The notes: a model not told the origin generated them from the letters alone. A stretch of DNA of 57,567 bases from Anaerolineales bacterium (GCA_046259355.1 JBJYWH010000134.1:1-57567); one strand, 5' to 3'; counted from the first letter of the stretch, positions 3,177 through 29,393 are shown. Made by a program: numbers and translations.

Positions 3177-4478
3177 TCAGCCCATATGGGCGATAACCGC
3201 GTCACCGAACTCCGAGGTGGTGAGCAGTTCACCCGCCTCCATCAGGCGGTGGAAATCATAGGTGACAGTGCGGGCGCCGATGGCACCTTCCATGCCGCGA
3301 ATAATCCGATCGGCGGCCTCCGTCCAGCCCATGTAGCGCAGCATCATCTCGCCGCTCAGGATCACCGATCCGGGATTGACCTTGTCCTGATCGGCGTACT
3401 TTGGTGCTGTTCCGTGGGTTGCTTCGAAGATGGCGTGGCCGGTGTCATAGTTGATGTTGCCGCCCGGCGCGATTCCAATTCCGCCGACCTGGGCTGCCAA
3501 GGCGTCCGAGAGATAATCGCCGTTCAAGTTCATGGTGGCGATGACATCAAACTCGCGGGCGCGAGTGATCGTTTGCTGAAAGGCGATATCGGCGATGGCG
3601 TCCTTAACCAGCAGGCGGCCAGCATCGAGTGCCTGGCGCTGCTCGGCATTGGCAGCTTCTTCGCCCTGCTCTTCTTTCGTCCGTTCCCACTGTGCCCAGG
3701 TGTACACGTCATCGCTGAACTCGCGCTCGGCCAGTTCGTACCCCCAGTTGCGGAAAGCCCCCTCGGTGTACTTCATGATGTTGCCTTTGTGAACCAGGGT
3801 CACCGAGCGGCGCGCGTACTGCAGGGCATAGCGGATCGCCGCCCGCACCAGACGGTCGGTGCCTTCCTGCGAGACGGGCTTGATGCTGAAGCCGGCGCTG
3901 TCGGGGAAGCGGATCTTGCCGTACTCATCCGGGAAGCGTTCGCTCAGCCAGGCACGGAATTCACGATTGATCTCTGTGCCGTACTCGAATTCCACCCCGG
4001 TGTAGATGTCCTCAGTGTTCTCGCGAAAGATCACCATGTCGACATATTCCGGATGTTTGACCGGCGAAGGGACGCCTTCGAAGTAGCGCACCGGGCGCAG
4101 GCAGACGTACAGATCGAGTGCTTTGCGCAGGGCCACGTTCAGTGACCGGATGCCGCCGCCGACCGGCGTGGTGAGCGGGCCCTTGATTCCTACCAGGAAT
4201 TCGTCAAACGCTTCGACGGTCTCGGAAGGCAGCCATTCACCGAATCGGTCAAAGGCGTCCTGGCCGGCGTGAACCTCCATCCAGGCGATCTTGCGTGCAT
4301 CGCCGTAAGCATGTTGTACGGCCGAGTCGATCACGCGCACCGAGGCGCGCCAGATATCGGGGCCGGTGCCGTCGCCGATGATGAAAGGGATGATTGGGCG
4401 ATCCGGAACCTGAAGCGCGCCATGCTCGACAGAAATTTTCTTCCCATCACCGGGCACCACGACGTGCTGATATGGCAT
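3177..4478 (-). CDS. icd: NADP-dependent isocitrate dehydrogenase
   Basis: 433 aa with [30 protein letters not shown] and GTAPKYAG-like GTAPKYAD. Length is typical of the prokaryotic homodimeric IDH. SD AAGGAGGAG lies upstream. Confidence 0.92.
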
Positions 4479-5575: not shown

Positions 5576-7747
5576 TCAGCCTTCAAGGATCTCAAGCGGT
5601 GCCAGGGATGCAACCAGGTGCTTTACGCCATCCTGTTCAAATTCAATTTCCAACTCCTCGTCATCGAACTCAAGTCGGGTTTCAACCACGATACCTTCCC
5701 CGAACGTGGGGTGCCGCACACGCATGCCCCTGCGGTAGCGGGGCTGAACCGTCGGCTGGACCGGGTTCTCCCAGCGCGTCTGGGCGCGGTACTCCCGCTG
5801 TGTCCACGTTTGAATCCCGGGTAGTTCGCCCTGCACCAGATCAGGAGGGATGTCATACAAGAAACGGGATGGCTCGCTCAGCATTGATGGCCCGGCAAGG
5901 CGACGGCGAAAAGCGCGCACGAGGAACAGCCGATCCTGCGCGCGCGTGACCCCGACGTAGAAGAGGCGTCGTTCCTCGGCCATTGCCTCCGGGTCGTCGA
6001 AGGAGCGCTGATGCGGCAGCACACCGTCGTCCATGCCGATAATCATCACGACGGGAAACTCGAGGCCCTTCGCGGCGTGCAGGGTGAGCAGCGTTGGGGC
6101 GTTCTGTTCGTCGCTGAGCGTGTCCTGATCGGAGACGAGCGCGACGTGCTCAAGGAAAGTTGTCAAATCCACCGTGCCGAACTCGTACGCTGCCCGGCGC
6201 AGTTCCTGTATATTCTCCCACCGTTCGGCGCCCTCTTCCGTGCCATCTTCGATATACGGTCGATAGCCGCTGCCTTCGAGCACCGAGTCGACCAGCTCGA
6301 TCAGCGTGAGTTGTTCGCGGACGTCGATCCAGCGCGCAAGCGGTTCGGCGAACGAAAGCAGCGCCGAACGAGCCCGGGTGTCGATCTGGTCGGCATAGGC
6401 GTGCTCGGGGTCGGCTGCCAGGTCGAGCAGGACCCGGCTTGGTTCCTGACCGTGCGCTTCGGCAAGCCGCAGCAGCAGTTCAACGGTTTTATCGCCAATG
6501 CCGCGCGGCGGCGTGTTCATGACGCGCAGCAGGCTGACCCGGTCCGAAGGGTTGTGGATCAACCGTAAGTACGCGATCAGGTCCTTGATCTCGCGCCGGC
6601 CGTAGAAGCGCTGTGCGCCAACGAGTTGATAGGGCAGGCCGGCCTGCAGGAACTTCTCTTCCAGCGCGCGCGATTGAGCATTCGTCCGATACATCACGGC
6701 GACGTCCCGCGGCTGGCGGCCTTCGTGCACCAGCCATGCGATGGTCTCGACGACGAAGGCGGCTTCATCACCTTCGTCGTAGCTTTCATGCAGCATCACC
6801 GGCTCGCCGCGTCCGCGCTCGGTGAAGAGCTGCTTCTTGCGGCGGTCTGGATTGCGGTCGATCACCGCCATGGCGACGTCGAGGATGGTCTGCTTGGAGC
6901 GGTAGTTCTGTTCGAGCAGGATGGTCTGGGCGGCTGGGAAATCCTGCTGAAAGCGGTGGACGTTCCGATAGTCCGCGCCGCGCCAGCGGTAGATGGATTG
7001 ATCGGGGTCGCCAACGACAAACAAATCCGGTTCAACGCCCGCCAGCAGCCGCAGCAGTGCATACTGGGCGCTATTCGTGTCCTGGAATTCGTCCACCAGT
7101 ATGTGTTGATAGCGCCGGCGGTAGGCCAACCGAACCTGATCCTGCGCCTGCAGCAGCCTGACTGCCCAGAAGAGCAGATCGTCGAAATCGAGTGCATTGT
7201 TGAGCAGCAGCAGCTCCTGGTAACGCGTATAAGCACGCCCGACGATCTCGTTGAAGTAGGTATCGCTGGCCAGGTCCTGGGGCTCAATCAGCTCGTTCTT
7301 GGCGCGAGAAATCGCGGCATGGATTCGCGCGGGCGACTGCTGTTTGGAATCGACCTGCAGCTGGCTGAGCACCTCGCGCAGCAGCGATTGCTGGTCAGAT
7401 TCGTCAAAGATGACGAACTCGCGCGTGAAGGGCAGGCGTTCAGATTCCCGCCGCAGCATGCGGGCGCAGAAAGCATGGAAGGTGCCCAGGCTTATTCCCG
7501 ACAAACGCTCGGGGCTTTCTTCCAGCAGGGCGGCCACCCGCAGTGCCATCTCGCGGGCGGCCTTGTTGGTGAACGTCACGGCCATGATCGAGGCGGGAAT
7601 ACTGCTGAGTTCCCGCACCAGGTAGGCCACGCGCTGGGTCAGGACGCGCGTTTTGCCCGAGCCCGGGCCGGCCAGGACCAGCACCGGACCCGGTGCTGCA
7701 GTAACAGCTGATTGCTGCGCGGGGTTCAATTCAGCAAGCCAATTCAT
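5576..7747 (-). CDS. pcrA: ATP-dependent DNA helicase, PcrA/UvrD (SF1) family
   Basis: 723 aa with Walker A AGPGSGKTRVLT, DEFQDTN, and a C-terminal UvrD_C plus Tudor-like tail (RVRHPTFGEGIVV). Confidence 0.9.
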   Translation of the reverse strand: MNWLAELNPAQQSAVTAAPGPVLVLAGPGSGKTRVLTQRVAYLVRELSSIPASIMAVTFTNKAAREMALRVAALLEESPERLSGISLGTFHAFCARMLRRESERLPFTREFVIFDESDQQSLLREVLSQLQVDSKQQSPARIHAAISRAKNELIEPQDLASDTYFNEIVGRAYTRYQELLLLNNALDFDDLLFWAVRLLQAQDQVRLAYRRRYQHILVDEFQDTNSAQYALLRLLAGVEPDLFVVGDPDQSIYRWRGADYRNVHRFQQDFPAAQTILLEQNYRSKQTILDVAMAVIDRNPDRRKKQLFTERGRGEPVMLHESYDEGDEAAFVVETIAWLVHEGRQPRDVAVMYRTNAQSRALEEKFLQAGLPYQLVGAQRFYGRREIKDLIAYLRLIHNPSDRVSLLRVMNTPPRGIGDKTVELLLRLAEAHGQEPSRVLLDLAADPEHAYADQIDTRARSALLSFAEPLARWIDVREQLTLIELVDSVLEGSGYRPYIEDGTEEGAERWENIQELRRAAYEFGTVDLTTFLEHVALVSDQDTLSDEQNAPTLLTLHAAKGLEFPVVMIIGMDDGVLPHQRSFDDPEAMAEERRLFYVGVTRAQDRLFLVRAFRRRLAGPSMLSEPSRFLYDIPPDLVQGELPGIQTWTQREYRAQTRWENPVQPTVQPRYRRGMRVRHPTFGEGIVVETRLEFDDEELEIEFEQDGVKHLVASLAPLEILEG

Positions 7748-17425: not shown

Positions 17426-18197
17426 ACTGCTCCTGGCCGCAACCGCGATGGTGCTGATCGGTGGCCTCTATGTCGGCGTGGTGATGGCGATAGGGACACC
17501 CACTGCAAGCGGGTTGATCGGTCACAGCCTGGGCGTGGTGGGTTTCATCCTGATGCTGGCTACCGAGACACTCTATTCGCTGCGCAAGCGATCGACCCGT
17601 GCGCGCTGGGGACGCATGAGCAGCTGGATGCAGTTTCATATTTTTACCGGGATCGTTGGCCCGTACCTCGTCCTGCTCCACACCGCGTGGCGTTTCCAGG
17701 GCCTGGCGGGAATCGTCACGTTGCTGACCTTGATTGTCGTGCTGAGCGGATTTGTGGGACGCTACATTTACACTGCAGTGCCACGCACAGCGGACGGCGT
17801 CATGGTGGAAGTCGATCAACTGCAAGCAGAGTTGGATCGGCTCGAAATCGATCTCAGGAATCAATTCGCATCCGAGAATATCCTGCTGAATGATTTGACC
17901 TCCCGGGTTGAGAGTGGGAGCAAAGCTGTCCTTGGCCGAGCCTTATTCGCGAGGGGCGAACGGCGACGCTGGCGAGCACTGCTCAACAAGATCGGCGTTC
18001 CGCCGGGCGAGACGGAACGAATCCTCTCGCTGCTTTCCCGCCGCAGCGACCTGGCAAGGCAGGTACGATCGACTCAGACTGCACGGCGTCTGCTGGCGGT
18101 ATGGCACAGTGTTCATATTCCGATCGGGATGGCGCTGTTTGCAGCCGCGTTTGTGCACATTGGCGCCGCCCTTTACTACGCCACATTACAACCTTGA
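17409..18197 (+). CDS. polytopic membrane protein with conserved intramembrane His (possible b-type haem/electron-transfer subunit)
   Basis: GTG at 17409, 7 nt after GGAAGGAG, overlapping the previous gene by 17 nt. Helices carry GHSLGVVGF, MQFHIFTG..LLHTAW and WHSVHIPIG..FVHIG. Confidence 0.55.
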   Translation: MRSSRELLLAATAMVLIGGLYVGVVMAIGTPTASGLIGHSLGVVGFILMLATETLYSLRKRSTRARWGRMSSWMQFHIFTGIVGPYLVLLHTAWRFQGLAGIVTLLTLIVVLSGFVGRYIYTAVPRTADGVMVEVDQLQAELDRLEIDLRNQFASENILLNDLTSRVESGSKAVLGRALFARGERRRWRALLNKIGVPPGETERILSLLSRRSDLARQVRSTQTARRLLAVWHSVHIPIGMALFAAAFVHIGAALYYATLQP

Positions 18198-18205
18198 GAG
18201 ACGGG

Positions 18206-19642
18206 ATGATGCGCAGGAAACCGCTGGGTTGCCTCACAAGTATCGGGTTGCTCGCAAGCGTAATCACGCTGGCTTTGGTCGCCGTGTCCGCGGCTGCCAC
18301 CGGGAATGGAATCTTCAGCCCCGGCGAACTAAACGCGCAGAGCATGGGTATGAACTTCGGAGGCGTTGTGAGCCACGTGGAGCTCGAAGACGAATGTTCT
18401 GCCTGTCATCCTGCGTTCTGGAGCGGGACGAGCATGCGTGATCGCTGCCTGGAGTGCCATCAATCCGTAGCTGTTGAGCTGGAAACATCAGGCAGCCTGC
18501 ACGGGTCCTTCGACGTTTCGCTTACCTGCCAGGACTGTCACCACGAGCATCGCGGCCCCAATGCCGCACTGACGGATTTCACAAATGTTGAATTTCCGCA
18601 CGAGACGGTCGGGTTTTCGCTGCAGGAGCACCACGGGCCGCTGGGTCAGAAAAGGTTTACGTGCCATGCCTGCCATACGCTGAGCGTGCGGGTGTTCGAC
18701 ACATCAACCTGCCGCGCATGTCATCTTTCCCGTGATATGGCCGCTCACGACAAGGCATTTGGCCTCCGTTGCTTGAATTGCCATGACGGGGTGGATCGCT
18801 TTGAGCGGGGCGCTTTCAATCACCAGCGGGCCTCCTTTCCGCTGGAAGGAGCTCACCATCTGCTGGCATGCGCTGAGTGCCACCAGGATGCCAATTCCAT
18901 TGCTGTGCTCCAATCCACGCCGCAAGGCTGTGCAGCCTGTCACGCGGATCGGGATGCACATGCTGGCCGCCTGGGCAATCGCTGCGAGGATTGTCATGCC
19001 CCGACCACCTGGGATCATGCCACGATTGACCACGACCTCACGCGCTATCCCCTGGTCGGCGCACATCTGCAGGTCGATTGCGAAGCGTGCCACGTTGACC
19101 GGGCCTGGACCGGCCTGCCGTTGAACTGCGCGGGATGTCACGTCAGCGATGATGCGCACGAAGGACGCTACGGCGACCAGTGCGAGGCCTGTCACCAGCC
19201 GACGGCCTGGCAGGATGCGACCTTTGATCACGATCTTTCGCGCTTTCCGCTGACGGGTGCCCATACCCTATTGGCCTGCGAGAGCTGCCACGCCAGTGGA
19301 TCGTTTGGTGGGCTTTCCGCCGCCTGCGTGTCTTGCCATGCAGACCCCACGTATCACCGCGGCCTGTTCGGATACTCCTGCGCGTCGTGCCACAACACAT
19401 GGGCCTGGCGGCCGACGCCCTACAACGGACCGCACAGTTTCCCCTACAACCATGGTGGGGCGGACGGCACCTGCTCGACCTGCCACCCCAGCGCGCTCAC
19501 GGGTTATACCTGCTACAGCTGTCACGAACACAACCAGGGCGAAATCGCCAACAAACACCGTGAGGAGGGGATCGGCAACCTGAACAACTGTGTTCGCTGT
19601 CATCCTTCGGGACGCGAGGCAGAGGGCGGAGAGGAGGACTGA
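18206..19642 (+). CDS. multihaem c-type cytochrome (18 CxxCH), secreted or anchored
   Basis: Start MMRRKPLGCLTSIGLLASVITLALVAV (signal or anchor). I count 18 CxxCH motifs, with repeated units FxHxxxxFPLxGxHxxxxCxxCH (doubled-CXXCH / c7-like). Confidence 0.9.
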   Translation: MMRRKPLGCLTSIGLLASVITLALVAVSAAATGNGIFSPGELNAQSMGMNFGGVVSHVELEDECSACHPAFWSGTSMRDRCLECHQSVAVELETSGSLHGSFDVSLTCQDCHHEHRGPNAALTDFTNVEFPHETVGFSLQEHHGPLGQKRFTCHACHTLSVRVFDTSTCRACHLSRDMAAHDKAFGLRCLNCHDGVDRFERGAFNHQRASFPLEGAHHLLACAECHQDANSIAVLQSTPQGCAACHADRDAHAGRLGNRCEDCHAPTTWDHATIDHDLTRYPLVGAHLQVDCEACHVDRAWTGLPLNCAGCHVSDDAHEGRYGDQCEACHQPTAWQDATFDHDLSRFPLTGAHTLLACESCHASGSFGGLSAACVSCHADPTYHRGLFGYSCASCHNTWAWRPTPYNGPHSFPYNHGGADGTCSTCHPSALTGYTCYSCHEHNQGEIANKHREEGIGNLNNCVRCHPSGREAEGGEED

Positions 19643-20094
19643 TCGCGTCCCTGCTCGCGGGCAAGCAGCAGCGGCCCAAGCACCTCGCCCAATACCATCA
19701 AGCCCAGCGCAGCGAACGGTGTACAGAACCAGGCCAGGCCGAGGGCAATCATCCAACGCTGCAGGGTGCCCTCGGGCCTGAAGATCACCGCGCCCGCCAG
19801 CAGATAAAGCCACAGCGTCAGGGCGGGCAGGGTGGCCAGCGCCGTCAGCAGGAAGCGCGCGCCGCGCGCTGTCTCCTTCCTGCTGGACGAATGCCCCGCC
19901 CTGCGCCAAACCCACACTGACCACACCAACAGGGCATAAGCCAGCGTGAGGAACGATCCGGTGACCAGCAAGCCCGGATCCGGCCGCCACCCTGCCAGGA
20001 TTCCATCGGCATCGAAGTAGCCGGCAATCGCGAGCACATTCGCAACCAGGCTCACCATACCGCTGAACAACAGGAACGCGTTATAACGTCTCAT
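19600..20094 (-). CDS. hypothetical membrane protein, last gene of the PolB cassette
   Basis: 164 aa with about four TM helices. The ATG is 22 nt after the polB stop and has GGTGGAGAAAG upstream. The 3' end overlaps the convergent cytochrome gene by 43 nt. Confidence 0.5.
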   Translation of the reverse strand: MRRYNAFLLFSGMVSLVANVLAIAGYFDADGILAGWRPDPGLLVTGSFLTLAYALLVWSVWVWRRAGHSSSRKETARGARFLLTALATLPALTLWLYLLAGAVIFRPEGTLQRWMIALGLAWFCTPFAALGLMVLGEVLGPLLLAREQGRDQSSSPPSASRPEG

Positions 20095-20116: not shown

Positions 20117-22486
20117 CTAGGCTGCCAGCAGCAGCTTGTTGTCTGCCGACGGCTGGCGATCCTTGTAGATGGCCGAGGCCGGTCGAATGCCCGTCCAGCT
20201 CTTCACGCGACCCGCCAGCAGCGGCACTCCGGGATCCACCCCCGGGGGCGGCAGCACACCGGGTGGACCCCAGTAGCCGGCGTTCGCCAGCAGCCAGGTC
20301 TCGAGCATGTTCCGGTTGACGCCGATCGGCGACACGATGCTCTCGATCGCCCGCAGCAGCAGCTCGCGGTACGCGGCGCGGTCGTAGTGCACATCGCCCT
20401 CGATCAGCTCCCAGGCCAGTGCCTTTTCCGGGCCGGGCACGAACAGGAAGTTCAGCCGCTCGCCGGGGTGGAGCTCGACCCCGGTCCCTGCCAGCTGCTG
20501 GGCGACGCGCGCGGCCGCGGTGCGCACGGTGTATTCCTCCGGCTTGCGGGACAGGCGGTGGGCGACGACCAATTCGGCGGGATTGACCTGGCCGGTGCAC
20601 AGCGCCGCCAGCCGCTGGCGGGCGTAGTCCAGCGCTTCCGGCAGTGCGGCGCGAAAGCCGGCCGCATCCTCGCCGGTCGCCAGGATCTCCAGCATCTCCA
20701 GTTGGGTCTGCTTGATGAAGCGCGGCGTATCGTGGCGGCGCGCTTCGATGCCGCGCACCTTCAGCGTGCGGTCCTCGTACGCGCCGAAGTAGCGGTTGGC
20801 GACCGCCACGCGCGGCTCGCTGCGCGAGGGCAGGAAGGCCAGCCAGCGGTAGACCCCCTCCAGCCCGATGTGCAGCCCGGTGCGATTGTGAATCTGCTCC
20901 AGCAGCGCCTCGTAATCCGGGCGCTGGCGCGCGCCGGGTTTGTAGATCCACAGCCCATCGACATACAGGTGCAGCACGCGAAAGCCCTGTGCTTCGACCA
21001 GCTCCTTGGTCTGCAGCAGGATCTCCCGGCCGTAGGCATTCACGGCCTCGTGCGCCTCGATGCGCCCGAAGCGGGCGTTCTTGTAGCCCAGGTAACCGAA
21101 GCAGGTCACCAGCAGCCACTTGTGGGCCGAGTAGCGCCGGCGGAACGGCTCCCGGCGCGGGTCGTGCGGCTCCATGGCGCGTATCAATTCCTTGTAGCGG
21201 CGGCGCTTTTCGAGCAGCGGCGCCAGCGTTTCCGGCACCAGCCCCAGGCGGTGGCGGCAGACCGGAGTGCCCAGCTCGGGGATCGGCTCGCCTTCGCAGC
21301 AGCGCGCCCCGACAGTCTCGGGCGAGATATTGAAGTGCACCATGATGCTGGGGTACATGGCGCTGAAGTCGAGCTCGGCGACGTGTTCGTGCAGGCCGGC
21401 GATCGGCGTGTAGACCAGCCCGCCCTTGTCTGCCGTGAGCAGGTCGAGTCCGCTCTTCAGGTCCTCTGGCTGGCGCTTCTGCCATGGCACCAGCACGTCG
21501 CGGCGCAGCGCGGTCGCGACCTGCATGGCGCTGATGCCGGTGCCGGTTGAAACGCGGGCGACGGTCTGCGGCGGCAGCCCGGAGAGGCGGGCGATCTCGA
21601 GAATGCCGTCGATGCCGTAATCATTCGCTAGGAATGCGTTCTGGCGGTCGAGGTGCCAGCGCCCGAAGAGCAGGTGCTGCTCATTGCGGAAGACCACCCG
21701 ACCGTAGGAGAAGTAGGAGGAGGCCGATTTGCGCTGCACGGCATACCCCGGGTCGCGGTTGAGCGGCAGCGGGATGCCGTAGTGCTCCGCCAGCTGGATC
21801 AGGCGCGGCAGGATGTAGTTGTCGCCGTAGGTCGAGACGATTACATCCGGGTCGTACGCCTCGAGCAGATGGCGCATGCCCAGCACCAGCTGCCGGCTGC
21901 GGCGGCGGGGGAAGCGCAGCGTCTCGCCCTCGATCTCGACCAGCAGGTCGGCCCGGTGGCCGCGGCCAGGGTCGCGCATGTCGCCGGCCAGGCGCAGCGC
22001 CATCGTGCGCAGCGGCGGCAGCGCGTAGTCGATCTCCCAGGGCGAATCGAGCGAGCGGATCTCACGCACCTGTTCCCCGTCGACCTCCAGCGCGCAGTAC
22101 GCCAACGGGAAGACTCCGCGCGTCAGCACGTAGCGCTGGGCGAGCGAGATATCGGCGTTGTAGTAGGTCAAGTCGGGAAAGGCATCGGCTGTTCGGCGGA
22201 AGAGGGCCGGCAGCTGCCCAGGCTGAGGTACGCCCACCTCGAGCACCTCCACCGGGCGGTCGAGGAACAGATCGCGGTGCTCGCCGCTCGCCAGCGTCAC
22301 CGGCGTACGCCCCCGGCGCAGCCACTGGCAGAGCGCGTGCAGTTCCGGGCGCGGGCCGCGGGCATAGAACGTGGCCGTGAACGAATCGCGCAGCTTGTGG
22401 CTGCGGCCCTGCGCGTCGAGCACCCAGACCGTCATGCCCTGGCCGTCCGGGTAGGTGTCGAACAGCCAGCCGAAGAGGGTGGTCAT
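20117..22486 (-). CDS. family-B DNA polymerase, archaeal-like, exonuclease motifs degenerate
   Basis: 789 aa. Motif A is LDFSAMYPSIMVHFNISPET. The motif B region is KWLLVTCFGYLGY. Motif C is GFRVLHLYVDGLWIYKPG (compare Pfu GFKVLYIDTDGLYATIPG). The ExoI position reads LRTMALRLAG and ExoII reads DPDVIVSTYGDNYILPRL. Confidence 0.85.
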   Translation of the reverse strand: MTTLFGWLFDTYPDGQGMTVWVLDAQGRSHKLRDSFTATFYARGPRPELHALCQWLRRGRTPVTLASGEHRDLFLDRPVEVLEVGVPQPGQLPALFRRTADAFPDLTYYNADISLAQRYVLTRGVFPLAYCALEVDGEQVREIRSLDSPWEIDYALPPLRTMALRLAGDMRDPGRGHRADLLVEIEGETLRFPRRRSRQLVLGMRHLLEAYDPDVIVSTYGDNYILPRLIQLAEHYGIPLPLNRDPGYAVQRKSASSYFSYGRVVFRNEQHLLFGRWHLDRQNAFLANDYGIDGILEIARLSGLPPQTVARVSTGTGISAMQVATALRRDVLVPWQKRQPEDLKSGLDLLTADKGGLVYTPIAGLHEHVAELDFSAMYPSIMVHFNISPETVGARCCEGEPIPELGTPVCRHRLGLVPETLAPLLEKRRRYKELIRAMEPHDPRREPFRRRYSAHKWLLVTCFGYLGYKNARFGRIEAHEAVNAYGREILLQTKELVEAQGFRVLHLYVDGLWIYKPGARQRPDYEALLEQIHNRTGLHIGLEGVYRWLAFLPSRSEPRVAVANRYFGAYEDRTLKVRGIEARRHDTPRFIKQTQLEMLEILATGEDAAGFRAALPEALDYARQRLAALCTGQVNPAELVVAHRLSRKPEEYTVRTAAARVAQQLAGTGVELHPGERLNFLFVPGPEKALAWELIEGDVHYDRAAYRELLLRAIESIVSPIGVNRNMLETWLLANAGYWGPPGVLPPPGVDPGVPLLAGRVKSWTGIRPASAIYKDRQPSADNKLLLAA

Positions 22487-22815
22487 GCGTCCCCGGCCTC
22501 ATGAGCCGTCCGGTTCGCAGGCGTGTCGGGCGGCAGCGCCGGCTGCTCGGTTTTGCCCTGCCCGGAACGCAGCACCTCGACCTCCTGCTGCAGCAGCAGG
22601 ACCTGTTTGTGCTCCTCGACCAGCATGGCGAGCAGCATGACCTCGAATGGCAGCAGGTGGGAGGCGTAGGCGGCCGCCGCCAGGTGACGGCGGGAGGCGC
22701 CCAGCAGGTCATCGAGCGCGCGCTGGTCTTCACGGCGCAGCGCCCGGCGGAAGCGAGCCAGCGATTGCTGCTCGTGTAAAAAAGCCTGTGTAATCGATGG
22801 CAGTGTGCGTCCCAT
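22483..22815 (-). CDS. small helical protein of unknown function, translationally coupled to polB
   Basis: 110 aa with strong GC3 bias. SD GAGGT. The stop overlaps the polB ATG (ATGA). No family recognised. Confidence 0.6.
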   Translation of the reverse strand: MGRTLPSITQAFLHEQQSLARFRRALRREDQRALDDLLGASRRHLAAAAYASHLLPFEVMLLAMLVEEHKQVLLLQQEVEVLRSGQGKTEQPALPPDTPANRTAHEAGDA

Positions 22816-22953: not shown

Positions 22954-23568
22954 TCAGTTGAACAAGCGCAGTTGCTCGCGGGATGTGTCCTCGGGCGCCC
23001 GCAGCAGCCAGGCGGCGTCGGCCGCGACCTGCAGTTGATCGAGCAGCGACCAGCGCTCCTTGACCAACACGCGCGGCTCGCGCGCGCCGACAATCACCGG
23101 CCCGCTCGACGCCAGGCGTTTCAGGTGGGCGATGGTCTTTGTCAGCAGGTGCTCGGATTCGCGCAGCGGGACGCTCTCGTCGTAAAAGGTGGTGAGCAGA
23201 TCGAGCACAAAGAGCACCTCGCCCGAAGAATGCAGGGCGGCGGGCGCGTTTTCAATCAGCTGCGCCAGCTGGAAGCAGGTGAAGGCGCGCGAGAGCTGCA
23301 CGCGTTCCAGCACGGCGTGTGGATTCGGGCTCAGGCGGCGCGCCAGGCGGGCGATGAAATACCCATCGAAGCGGTTGCCGCCGTCGAAGACGCGCACCTG
23401 CTGGCCGCGCGCTGCGATCAGCGTCAGAGCCGCCAGCAGCGACCGGGTGGGCGTCTCGGCGCCCCAGAAGAGCGACAGGCGCGGTTGCAGCAGCATCTCC
23501 AGCGTGGATGGATCGTCCAGAACCCGCGGCAGCGGCGGCAGTTCGGTGGAAACGAGCGTTGATGACAT
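22954..23568 (-). CDS. RecA-superfamily-fold protein with degenerate P-loop (ImuA/SulA-like, inferred)
   Basis: ATG at 23568, 5 nt after GGAGGT. It shows strand-loop-helix LSLFWGAETPTRSLLAALTLIAA where GxxxxGK[ST] would sit, a Walker-B-like VLFVLDLLTTFYDE, and LSRAFTCFQL. Confidence 0.5.
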   Translation of the reverse strand: MSSTLVSTELPPLPRVLDDPSTLEMLLQPRLSLFWGAETPTRSLLAALTLIAARGQQVRVFDGGNRFDGYFIARLARRLSPNPHAVLERVQLSRAFTCFQLAQLIENAPAALHSSGEVLFVLDLLTTFYDESVPLRESEHLLTKTIAHLKRLASSGPVIVGAREPRVLVKERWSLLDQLQVAADAAWLLRAPEDTSREQLRLFN

Positions 23569-23598: not shown

Positions 23599-23626
23599 AT
23601 AGTAGAACAAATGTGCTAACAGTCTA
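23599..23626 (-). promoter_or_regulatory. promoter-like element with LexA (Cheo-type) box upstream of the PolB cassette
   Basis: Box GAACAAATGTGC at 23605..23616 (11/12 to GAAC-N4-GTTC), flanked on the minus strand by TAGACT (-35-like) and TACTAT (-10-like) with a 16-nt spacer. It shares the 12-mer TAGAACAAATGT with the box at 29371..29382. Confidence 0.6.
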
Positions 23627-23666
23627 TCTCTGGACGATTGCGCCGCAATCCCGTGGGGGGTGGAAC

Positions 23667-23698
23667 CGCGCGGGTGATTCGCGAATCACCCGCGCGGG
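23667..23698 (-). terminator. 32-bp perfect GC-rich palindrome downstream of the plsC-like gene
   Basis: CCGCGCGGGTGATTCG/CGAATCACCCGCGCGG, 16+16 nt with no mismatches, 33 nt after the stop at 23732. No U tract on either strand. Confidence 0.35.
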
Positions 23699-28833: not shown

Positions 28834-29313
28834 TCAACCAGCCTCCTGCCGCCACCAACGCAGGCCGAGATCGAGCAGCAGCATGCGCAGGTCGGACTTG
28901 CTGTGCAGGCCGAATTTGCTCAGCACGCTGCGCACGTGCGACTTGACGGTTTCGGGTGAGATGACCAGCTTTTCGGCGATCTCCTGGTTGGTGCGGCCGC
29001 GTGCCGCCAACCAGGTGATCTCGCGTTCGCGCGGTGTGAGCGACGCCAGCACCGCTTCCGCATGCCGGCGCAGTGCCTCGCGCTCGAGTGCGCTTGAGAG
29101 CAGTTCCTGCGCCAGGGCCTGCGGGGACCGGTTGCGGACGCGGGCCGCACGGCGCAGAAGAAGTGCCAGCTGCCCCTCCAGCTCGACGGTCAGGCCGGGA
29201 TGGCTGGAATCGGGCGCCAGCCGGCGCAGACGCGCCAGCCATCCCACCCGGCCGGGTGATGACGTGGAAGGTCGTTCGGTGCTGGCGGAGTTCAACCGGC
29301 GAAAAAACCACAC
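28834..29313 (-). CDS. LuxR/GerE-family HTH transcriptional regulator
   Basis: C-terminal LTPREREITWLAARGRTNQEIAEKLVISPETVKSHVRSVLSKFG. The start is uncertain; I favour the GTG at 29313, 6 nt after GGGAG and downstream of the predicted TSS. Confidence 0.7.
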   Translation of the reverse strand: MWFFRRLNSASTERPSTSSPGRVGWLARLRRLAPDSSHPGLTVELEGQLALLLRRAARVRNRSPQALAQELLSSALEREALRRHAEAVLASLTPREREITWLAARGRTNQEIAEKLVISPETVKSHVRSVLSKFGLHSKSDLRMLLLDLGLRWWRQEAG

Positions 29314-29364: not shown

Positions 29365-29393
29365 ATTATATAGAACAAATGTTCGTATGTCAA
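29365..29393 (-). promoter_or_regulatory. consensus sigma-70 promoter with an embedded perfect LexA (Cheo) box
   Basis: Minus strand reads TTGACA (29393..29388), then the 17-nt spacer TACGAACATTTGTTCTA, then TATAAT (29370..29365). The spacer contains the perfect palindrome GAACAAATGTTC (29373..29384). Confidence 0.75.

Follow-up and report, generated by a model that had tools for sequence, protein, structure and literature searches.

The window analysed here, the whole 57,567-nt stretch of Anaerolineales DNA, carries three co-oriented genes, iRadA, PPB2 and PolB2, which follow each other on the minus strand (22954-23568, 22483-22815 and 20117-22486, respectively), with PolB2 last. The PolB2 ORF, whose exact bounds had already been given by an earlier sequence-only reading of the region, encodes 789 aa and overlaps the stop codon of PPB2 with its own start (ATGA). 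The gene order is kept in approximately 70 of 80 related loci and has been described as the sole order of these genes in bacteria (PMC11791011). Downstream of PolB2, a small membrane-protein gene is co-syntenic with the operon.

The 20117-22486 ORF is a genuine family-B DNA polymerase. It matches Pfam PF00136 (E = 1.8e-27), finds P. abyssi PolB as a single sequence (E = 1e-53) and, as a profile searched against the archaeal PolBs of the PDB, aligns with P. abyssi PolB over both halves (E = 4e-113); more than 6000 homologues were recovered. A first AF2 model built from 35 close homologues was discarded (pLDDT 66, pTM 0.39, Foldseek TM ~0.35-0.4). The model built with 91 more diverse sequences (pLDDT 88.7, pTM 0.86) compares with the 9N and KOD polymerases at TM 0.69-0.72 and has the complete family-B architecture, consisting of an N-terminal domain, an exonuclease-like domain, palm, fingers and thumb. 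The best NCBIfam models were NF004416 and NF004418 (396 and 393 bits), followed by PolB1/B3-type models at 129 bits and Pol II models at 39-68 bits, and two archaeal relatives from Thermoplasmatota gave the same ranking. As all of these scores are below the NCBI curated cut-offs, they provide a ranking rather than formal membership, and the ranking favors a bacterial PolB2, or "G2", polymerase, a family-B enzyme of archaeal origin. Relatives of the ORF are labelled "DNA polymerase II" or "DNA polymerase-2" by JGI.

As aligned, the exonuclease domain of PolB2 is inactivated, with Exo I degenerate, the Exo II Asp lost and Exo III missing. In the Exo II remnant, Y220-GDNYILPRL-229 (21800..21829, minus strand), alignment to the P. 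abyssi and Deep Vent PolBs places I225 at the catalytic Asp (NGDxFDFPYL vs YGDNY-I225-LPRL), the same Asp-to-Ile change that the sequence-only reading had reported. Across 120 diverse relatives with 32-60% identity to PolB2, which we used for all conservation columns, this position is L, I or V in 99/120 and Asp in 5/120. The reported lack of an Exo III YxxxD also holds: none can be aligned upstream of the EIARLSG helix, the segment between Exo II and this helix is ~45 residues shorter than in Pyrococcus, and hhalign over the region yields only Y290-x-x-D293. An ungapped placement of Exo III (YSMED) on H278-LDR-Q282 was dropped, GRWHLD being a conserved GRxHxD hairpin. For Exo I, the earlier claim that both acidic residues of the motif were lost at LRTMALR stands for the Glu, which is missing in every register, but where exactly the motif falls is ambiguous; FDIET aligns with R141-E142-I-R144-S in the HMMER pairwise and profile alignments, whereas hhalign puts the Asp on D147 and the Glu on M162, near LRTMALR. 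No register contains a conserved DxE, and D136-G-E138, the sole DxE in the region, was considered as a cryptic Exo I but rejected, since even close relatives do not conserve it. The concern that the by-eye alignment had simply been shifted was examined with HMMER pairwise, profile and hhalign alignments, all of which lack the Exo II Asp, Exo III and the DTD of motif C.

The polymerase motifs show a different pattern. Motif A, D373-FSAMYPS (21347..21370, minus strand), is intact, as had been noted, and contains the first catalytic metal-ligand Asp (D373, 120/120) and the steric-gate Tyr378. Motif B reads K456-WLLVTCFG (21095..21121, minus strand) vs KILANSYYG in the reference, with the Lys retained (K in 118/120; family consensus KWLLV[TV][CS]FG). 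The substitution proposed here from the sequence is real but falls one residue away from the register first read, with Asn-Ser replaced by Val-Thr and Tyr by Cys, not Asn-Ser by Thr-Cys. We count the replaced motif-B Asn against the explanation favoured below. Motif C, YIDTDGL in the consensus, is H506-L-Y508-V-D510-G-L (20951..20971, minus strand; H 111/120, D 119/120), such that Tyr takes the place of the first Asp and the second Asp is kept, in agreement with the original observation; among the 120 relatives the first position is never Asp but I, L, Y, N or V. An HxxxD motif C is a PolB2 signature (PMC8764526). The KKY of the KxY region likewise corresponds to N564-R-Y, the NRY seen previously. 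In substance, all the changes listed by the sequence-only reading hold, with the registers of Exo I and motif B as the two corrections. Given that D373, D510 and K456 are essentially invariant, the substitution pattern is not due to chance, and the conservation of both metal-binding Asp residues together with the motif-B Lys favors an active enzyme over a dead scaffold.

Two further segments lie upstream of motif A. D353-K354-G-G (21419..21430, minus strand) is the PolB2-specific D(K/R) loop defined previously (PMC7544198); it is conserved in the relatives (D 119/120, K/R 108/120, GG 119/120) and has reduced pLDDT (66-79) in the AF2 model. E341-D-L-K-S-G346 (21449..21466, minus strand) is the local form of the family E-x-F-K-[TS]-A, or FxxA-like, segment (F 67, K 101, T 58 plus S 45, and A 75, all of 120), reading LKSG in PolB2 vs FK[TS]A in the family. 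A 2025 model predicts it to be the iRadA-binding site, engaged as Rad51 engages its neighbor (PMC11791011). With HxxxD, the D(K/R)GG loop and the exonuclease changes, the ORF as aligned carries exactly the published PolB2/G2 signature (PMC7544198, PMC8764526).

The two upstream genes encode the expected partners. PPB2 (22483..22815, minus strand) is a putative small helical partner of 110 aa that begins MGRTLPSIT. The N-terminus is MGRT[LVI] in 72/75 homologues, with one VGRTL explained by an alternative start codon; this matches the MGRT motif defined for PPB2 (PMC11791011), and PF26485 is carried by 3465 PPB2 homologues. iRadA (22954..23568, minus strand) has 204 aa corresponding to a RadA/Rad51-like core lacking the N-terminal domain and the Walker A P-loop. 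It matches Pfam Rad51 at 3.6e-5, and its profile matches P. furiosus RadA at 1.6e-5 in an alignment that begins past the P-loop; no GxxxxGK[ST] was found in iRadA, and the corresponding segment is variable across homologues. The likely start is the ATG at 23568, which has a GGAGG upstream, and the alternative TTG at 23610 in the ORF listing is probably too far upstream. iRadA ends EQLRLFN, in which Q199-L-R-L-F203 (22960..22974, minus strand) is a candidate beta-clamp-binding motif of the QLxLF type; Q[LP]xL[FL] is present at the extreme C-terminus of most of 70 homologues. A C-terminal clamp motif was also looked for in the PolB2 tail and is absent there, in line with the report that the motif, QLxLF-like in bacteria, occurs on iRadA or PolB2 but rarely on both (PMC11791011).

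Upstream of iRadA, we identified a LexA-type palindrome, TAGCACATTTGTTCTA (23603..23618), 35-50 nt from the ATG, that corresponds to TAGAAC-N4-GTTCTA with one mismatch (GCAC). A box of this type occurs in the 250 nt preceding iRadA in 59/70 sequences compared to 14/2153 control windows, and most of those 14 are operon boxes sited further upstream; overall, the palindrome precedes the PolB2 operon in 71 of 81 sequences (80 related loci and the window). Across the whole window, GAAC-N4-GTTC with one mismatch is not enriched (25 found vs 18.6 expected), and the significance of the box therefore comes only from its footprint across loci. A putative promoter with a -35 TTGCGG, a 16-nt spacer and a -10 TAGACT (23621..23648, minus strand) ends 2 nt before the box. 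In most loci, the box is directly preceded by TA-rich -10-like hexamers, while a sigma-70 consensus scan called no promoter in the upstream region of the operon, and we consider the assignment tentative. Further upstream, after the acyltransferase gene, a perfect 32-nt palindrome (23666..23697, minus strand) is predicted to form a hairpin with a 14-bp stem (-32.9 kcal/mol, z = -5.8) that probably serves as a terminator or insulator marking the 5´ boundary of the operon; given that it has no T-run, the terminator function is an inferred one.

Binding of LexA to the 23603-23618 box is suggested by its sequence, but the palindrome could instead be the operator of a GerE/LuxR-type or other regulator, in which case the operon would answer a non-SOS signal. 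In a tblastn search with an approximate E. coli LexA query, neither the window nor the 4 kb around each related locus yielded a lexA gene, such that LexA control is read from the operator-like motif itself. In at least 10 divergent loci, iRadA is separated from the box by a GerE-type gene, and at one locus such a gene lies divergently from iRadA. The GerE-type gene of the window is unlinked to the operon, 5.7 kb away, and is driven from a separate, perfect sigma-70 promoter whose spacer contains the SOS-type box also found at the operon, an arrangement expected for autoregulation. GerE is also a commoner neighbor than LexA in the published Table S1 (PMC11791011). Against these points, the sequence follows the canonical GAAC-N4-GTTC LexA box, known from Firmicutes and Actinobacteria (PMC3323433), and lexA is enriched beside bacterial polB2 in other phyla (PMC11791011). 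The archaeal homologues are damage-induced. In the Chloroflexi, LexA of Dehalococcoides binds the GAAC-N4-GTTC box. We thus consider control by a regulator other than LexA unlikely, and repression by LexA the preferred reading of the box.

The nature of the polymerase also can be questioned. The sequence-only reading had raised the option of a catalytically crippled scaffold, which is the superseded "inactivated PolB" hypothesis of 2008, whereby PolB2 is catalytically dead and purely structural. The family was indeed first annotated as inactivated (PMC2527604), and the destroyed exonuclease site together with the substituted first motif-C Asp, motif-B Asn-Ser and KKY fit this idea. However, the metal-ligand Asps, motif-B Lys, steric-gate Tyr and motif-C His are near-invariant among relatives of 32-60% identity, conservation for which a pure scaffold has no need, and Sulfolobus Dpo2, which also has HxxxD, matches the replicase in activity (PMC8764526), making a dead protein very improbable. 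An ordinary Pol II-like (G1) proofreading polymerase for repair or replication, obscured by a shifted alignment, would have the same overall domain order and size, and would agree with the JGI labels, but it can be practically dismissed given the three independent alignments, the 39-68 bits of the Pol II models vs 396 for B2-type models, and the missing clamp motif at the C-terminus of the polymerase. Family-B polymerases also occur in casposons and pipolins, and the PolB2 family reached bacteria by horizontal transfer (PMC7544198), which could point to an origin in a mobile element or in anti-phage defence, for instance in a defence island. Yet synteny of the flanking acyltransferase gene and of the membrane-protein gene downstream extends across many Anaerolineales genomes, the GC content is just slightly over the window average, no integrase or terminal repeats were seen, and the single PADLOC match is to an intein-type homing-endonuclease model that overlaps the polymerase sequence and is irrelevant. 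A mobile or defence origin is accordingly highly improbable.

Collectively, these data make it very probable that the ORF encodes a bacterial PolB2 that lacks proofreading, has a working polymerase center and is the last gene of an SOS-controlled iRadA-PPB2-PolB2 operon. By homology to Sulfolobus Dpo2, PolB2 most likely provides catalysis within an SOS-induced translesion complex that is tethered to the clamp and acts as a mismatch or lesion extender. In undamaged cells, LexA bound to the GAAC-N4-GTTC-type palindrome, 2 nt past the putative -10, would repress the operon. DNA damage would lift this repression, allowing the three translationally coupled proteins to assemble, with iRadA, as an inactive RadA paralogue, docking on the FxxA-like loop of PolB2 and its C-terminal QLRLF tethering the complex to the beta sliding clamp. 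The polymerase then could extend mispaired or lesion-opposed primer termini that the replicase is unable to use, providing damage tolerance at the cost of mutations. The present analysis itself establishes the fold, the motif pattern with its conservation, the arrangement of the operon, the motifs of the partner proteins and the conserved operator-like palindrome. From homologues and the literature we infer that PolB2 polymerises without exonuclease activity, acts as an extender and forms the complex, and that the clamp and LexA are bound. Published AlphaFold models have PolB2, iRadA and a PPB2 trimer in a heteropentamer (PMC11791011). Dpo2 is an active polymerase that has no exonuclease and serves as a mismatch and lesion extender, inserting accurately yet extending mismatched or lesion-paired termini (PMC8764526), while a literature search for biochemical characterisation of any bacterial PolB2 yielded in silico work only.

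Of the options in the sequence-only reading, a proofreading-free specialised polymerase is thus supported, both by the PolB2/G2 hallmarks and by the operon. The accompanying term "error-prone" is imprecise: Dpo2, the characterised archaeal homologue, is accurate at insertion and extends mismatched or lesion-paired ends (PMC8764526). The enzyme had also been called unusual for a bacterial SOS gene, which is correct insofar as B-family translesion polymerases are uncommon in bacteria, but the bacterial group and its association with lexA have been published (PMC7544198, PMC11791011, PMC12926913). The operon as such is real and not new, having been described already (Kazlauskas 2020, PMC7544198; Feng 2022; Timinskas 2025, PMC11791011), the last of these reporting the mutasome model together with the gene order restricted to bacteria and the enrichment of lexA, and this literature fully explains the motif-by-motif observations that drew attention to the locus. 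PolB2 provides a textbook-quality case of a family wrongly labelled "inactivated" for a decade. For these Chloroflexota, the operon may supply SOS-inducible translesion synthesis by a B-family polymerase instead of a Y- or C-family one, and the locus is clean and compact, combining an operator-like box and a putative promoter with a clamp motif and a possible degron.

Our small additions are a conserved C-terminal LAA tail and the co-regulated GerE-type regulator. L-A-A (20120..20128, minus strand) closes the disordered PolB2 tail (residues 755-789, pLDDT <50). The C-terminus is AA in 44/120 and LAA in 25/120 close relatives, compared to AA endings in 1/136 and 4/78 of two sets of distant relatives, and by its sequence LAA is a candidate ssrA-like degron. 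A conserved GYWGPPG...PLL extension also is specific to this subclade. It is conceivable, though doubtful, that the PolB2 mutasome of this Anaerolineales subclade has extra layers of control not discussed in published descriptions. If so, the (L)AA tail could make PolB2 a constitutive ClpXP substrate, with turnover limiting the duration of mutagenesis as proteolysis does for UmuD and UmuC, and the GerE/LuxR-type regulator with its SOS-type box would form a second regulatory tier.

In comparison with the published bacterial PolB2/"G2" mutasome (PMC7544198, PMC11791011, PMC12926913), nothing essential differs here. HxxxD, the D(K/R) loop, the gene order, the PPB2 MGRT, an exonuclease domain that is both dead and shortened, and the P-loop-less iRadA with its C-terminal clamp motif are all shared, and the LexA-type box suggests the same link to a DNA-damage regulon. 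Anaerolineae members with an HLYVDG motif C are listed in the 2025 supplementary table (PMC11791011), and culturable Anaerolineae in that supplement include Bellilinea, Ornatilinea, Pelolinea and Longilinea. The differences are minor: lexA is not adjacent, the FxxA-like segment is LKSG, the subclade has the GYWGPPG...PLL extension and the C-terminal (L)AA, and the GerE-type gene of the window is unlinked. Dpo2 of Sulfolobus islandicus and S. solfataricus (PMC7390963, PMC8764526) is a homologous catalytic subunit that shares HxxxD and the loss of the Exo motifs, and is damage-inducible from an operon with a RadA paralogue and a small helical protein, inducibility being predicted for the window. 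In contrast to PolB2, Dpo2 is much smaller, its exonuclease domain is more decayed, its regulatory link is to an Orc1/Cdc6 homologue instead of LexA, it works with PCNA rather than the beta clamp, and its activity was demonstrated experimentally.

The resemblance to other polymerases is more distant. E. coli DNA polymerase II (PolB, G1) likewise is an SOS-regulated bacterial polymerase with the family-B fold that uses the beta clamp, but it is an accurate single-subunit enzyme in which Exo I-III are intact, motif C reads YxDTD and the polymerase itself carries a C-terminal clamp motif, three features absent from the window PolB2. The Pol V mutasome (UmuD'2C-RecA-ATP) and ImuA-ImuB-DnaE2 are LexA-controlled, clamp-tethered, multi-subunit translesion machines in which, as proposed here, a polymerase is paired with a RecA-family protein, either RecA itself or the inactive ImuA; with catalytic subunits from the unrelated Y and C families, respectively, they represent an analogy and not membership. 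Eukaryotic Pol zeta (Rev3) is a B-family polymerase that also has an inactivated exonuclease domain and carries out the extender step of translesion synthesis, but it has Rev7, Pol31 and Pol32 subunits, an Fe-S C-terminal domain and an intact DTD, and is not closely related to PolB2 within family B.

The interval 20117-22486 on the minus strand is exactly one ORF of 789 aa, which matches Pfam DNA_pol_B (E=1.8e-27). Homologues of this polymerase, PolB2, number >6000 at E below 1e-10, and the nearest, at 68-90% identity, come from Anaerolineales/Chloroflexota MAGs. Clustering at 50% identity gave 850 clusters with E below 1e-30. These matches indicate a real and strongly conserved gene. A sequence-only reading had described an intact motif A alongside substituted exonuclease and polymerase motifs, and pairwise HMMER alignments with the PolB proteins of P. 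abyssi and Deep Vent agree in most respects. Motif A (DFSAMYPS) is present, with D373. In motif C (H506-LYVD510-GL), the first Asp is replaced by Tyr and the second retained, KKY of the KxY region is NRY, and Exo II (YGDNY-I225-LPRL) carries Ile for the catalytic Asp, all as described. Motif B (K456-WLLVTCFG) is indeed substituted, but the proposed change of Asn-Ser to Thr-Cys should read Asn-Ser to Val-Thr, followed by Tyr to Cys. For Exo I, loss of the Glu holds in every register, but the register read by eye, LRTMALR, needs correcting to an ambiguous one: HMMER places FDIET over R141-E142-I-R144-S, whereas hhalign against Pfu Pol (775/775 identical to PDB 3A2F) aligns the Asp with D147 and the Glu with M162, close to LRTMALR. 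The sole DxE near Exo I, D136-G-E138, was rejected, as it varies even among close relatives. Because the motif list is borne out, no register keeps the Exo I Glu, and the segment from Exo II to the EIARLSG helix, where Exo III was said to be missing, lacks YxxxD and is ~45 residues shorter than in Pyrococcus, the alignments confirm the observation.

A first AF2 model of PolB2, which used close homologues, was poor. The second drew on 91 more diverse sequences (pLDDT 88.7, pTM 0.86) and resembled 9N/KOD/Pfu-type polymerases over its whole length (TM ~0.7), with lower confidence limited to the 340-360 loop (the D(K/R)/FxxA region) and a disordered C-terminal tail, residues 755-789 (20120-20224), ending in LLLAA. 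The tail preceding the terminal (L)AA is hypervariable among close relatives. Terminal AA is found in 44/120 and LAA in 25/120 relatives of at least 68% identity, with terminal AA in 1/136 and 4/78 distant relatives, making (L)AA a candidate ssrA/ClpX-like C-terminal degron. Past the end of the canonical thumb, GYWGPPGxLPPxGxDxxxPLL (residues 737-757, 20216-20278) is conserved only in an Anaerolineales subclade. Some family members of 1200-1300 aa (P0257, P0285, P0316, P0318, P0331, P0335, P0349, P0363 and others) match the query in two stretches split at residue 463-464, within motif B (KWLLVTC and FG), consistent with an intein inserted at a conserved site.

Directly upstream of PolB2 on the same strand lie the genes for PPB2 (22483-22815, minus strand, 110 aa), whose stop codon shares ATGA with the start of the polymerase, and iRadA (22954-23568, minus strand), which has profile matches to Pfam Rad51 (3.6e-5) and P. 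furiosus RadA (1.6e-5); iRadA has neither an N-terminal domain nor a Walker A P-loop. The locus corresponds to the iRadA-PPB2-PolB2 operon described by Timinskas et al., 2025 (PMC11791011), who report this gene order as the sole one in bacteria. In that study, MGRT is the key arm of PPB2 and a QLxLF-type clamp motif is usually on iRadA, not PolB2 (PMC11791011); here PPB2 begins with MGRT and iRadA ends in QLRLF-N. Among 80 related loci, taken from species-representative genomes that are nearly all Anaerolineales/Chloroflexota MAGs, ~70 keep the order, MGRT[LVI] begins 72/75 PPB2 homologues (VGRTL one more), and Q[LP]xL[FL] ends most iRadA homologues. The PolB2 segment predicted to bind iRadA in the manner of Rad51 has the FxxA-type consensus E-x-F-K-[TS]-A, and reads E-D-L-K-S-G in the window protein. 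Precomputed PF26485 domains were present on all PPB2 homologues listed; our local Pfam-A search did not report PF26485 for the window PPB2, and that library seems to be without this newer model. In two divergent Chloroflexota loci (L069, L076), PolB2 is directly preceded by a LexA-type box (~3935-3950) and neither iRadA nor PPB2 was detected in the 4 kb upstream of PolB2; the genomes may lack the two partners or encode them at other sites. Starting 22 nt after the PolB2 stop, a hydrophobic 164-aa ORF (19600-20094, minus strand) without a match in Pfam, NCBIfam or PADLOC occupies the same position in ~15 close loci; it may be a fourth gene of the operon, or its position may reflect synteny alone. 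A 513-aa multihaem cytochrome c with c7/c3 domains (18101-19642, plus strand) also lies near the operon.

A LexA-type palindrome, TAGCACATTTGTTCTA (23603-23618; TAGAAC-N4-GTTCTA with one mismatch), begins 50 nt before the ATG of iRadA. One-mismatch GAAC-N4-GTTC sites number 25 in the window versus 18.6 expected, and the box alone is not significant. The comparison of loci, however, reveals a strong phylogenetic footprint: the box occurs in 59/70 upstream windows versus 14/2153 control windows, most of the latter matches being operon boxes further upstream, and it precedes PolB2 in 71/81 sequences (the related loci plus the window). Its consensus is T-AG[A/C]AC-N4-GTTCT-A-T-T, usually just 3´ of a TA-rich -10-like hexamer. 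A Chloroflexi LexA, that of Dehalococcoides, binds GAAC-N4-GTTC. The motif also serves as LexA box in Firmicutes and Actinobacteria (PMC3323433). Since neither the window nor the 4 kb around each related locus yielded a lexA gene, we infer LexA binding from the box itself. Between the operon and the upstream acyltransferase gene, which it follows, a perfect GC-rich 32-nt palindrome (23666-23697; 14-bp stem, -32.9 kcal/mol, z = -5.8, no T-run) forms a hairpin that probably acts as terminator or insulator ahead of the promoter of the operon. A UvrD/PcrA-type helicase gene (5576-7747, minus strand) has no one-mismatch LexA-type box in its ~60-nt upstream region.

We consider it very probable that the operon would be repressed by LexA, that damage would induce three translationally coupled proteins that assemble into a PolB2 complex, that QLRLF of iRadA would tether this complex to the beta clamp, and that proofreading-free PolB2 would extend termini unusable by the replicase. 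Our analysis itself shows the fold, the motifs and their conservation, the operon architecture, the partner motifs and the operator footprint, while activity, assembly, clamp binding and LexA binding are predictions. The palindrome might instead be the site of a GerE-type regulator. A second LexA-type box, a perfect GAACAAATGTTC (29371-29386), occupies the 17-nt spacer within a 12/12 consensus sigma-70 promoter (TTGACA, TATAAT; 29365-29393, minus strand) that drives a GerE/LuxR-type gene (~28834-29305, minus strand). Homologues of this GerE-type gene, with 42% identity over 116 aa, separate the box from iRadA in at least 10 divergent loci (L063, L064, L066, L068, L071, L073-L075, L077, L079), and one is divergent from iRadA in L038. 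GerE is a frequent neighbour in Table S1 of PMC11791011; a term search did not turn it up in the main text. We judge a GerE site unlikely next to LexA control.

That PolB2 is a dead scaffold, the crippled alternative of the sequence-only reading, is improbable, because both metal-ligand carboxylates are under selection: among 120 aligned diverse representatives (32-60% identity), D373 is kept in 120/120 and D510 in 119/120, along with K456 (118/120), Y378 and H506 (111/120 each). It is improbable also because the archaeal homologue Sulfolobus Dpo2 is a robust polymerase without exonuclease that inserts accurately and efficiently extends mismatched or lesion-paired termini (PMC8764526). In the same alignment, motif C position 1 is I/L/Y/N/V and Asp in none, in line with the summary of the PolB2 change as YxDTD to HxxxD (PMC8764526). 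At the catalytic Exo II position, 99/120 have L/I/V and only 5/120 Asp, and a D353-(K/R)-G-G loop is essentially invariant. A mobile-element or defence polymerase is very improbable, given negative PADLOC results and syntenic flanks. Least credible of all is a Pol II-like enzyme, as the locus lacks the features that define Pol II (G1). Two NCBIfam 'type B polymerase' models (NF004416, 396 bits; NF004418, 393 bits) scored far above the PolB1/B3-type model (129 bits) and the one for Pol II (68 bits), all below curated cut-offs; the ranking was identical for two Thermoplasmatota archaeal relatives.

All testable features of PolB2 (G2) and operon membership appear in the locus, with only indirect support for the G2 phylogenetic placement and for damage induction. 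The operon is already known, because the 2025 supplement contains Anaerolineae operons in which motif C is HLYVDG and iRadA has a clamp motif (PMC11791011). Our literature search found no experimentally characterised bacterial PolB2 member, and the remaining value of such loci lies there. Pol V, ImuA-ImuB-DnaE2 and eukaryotic Pol zeta would be functional analogues of the locus, which belongs to none of these families.
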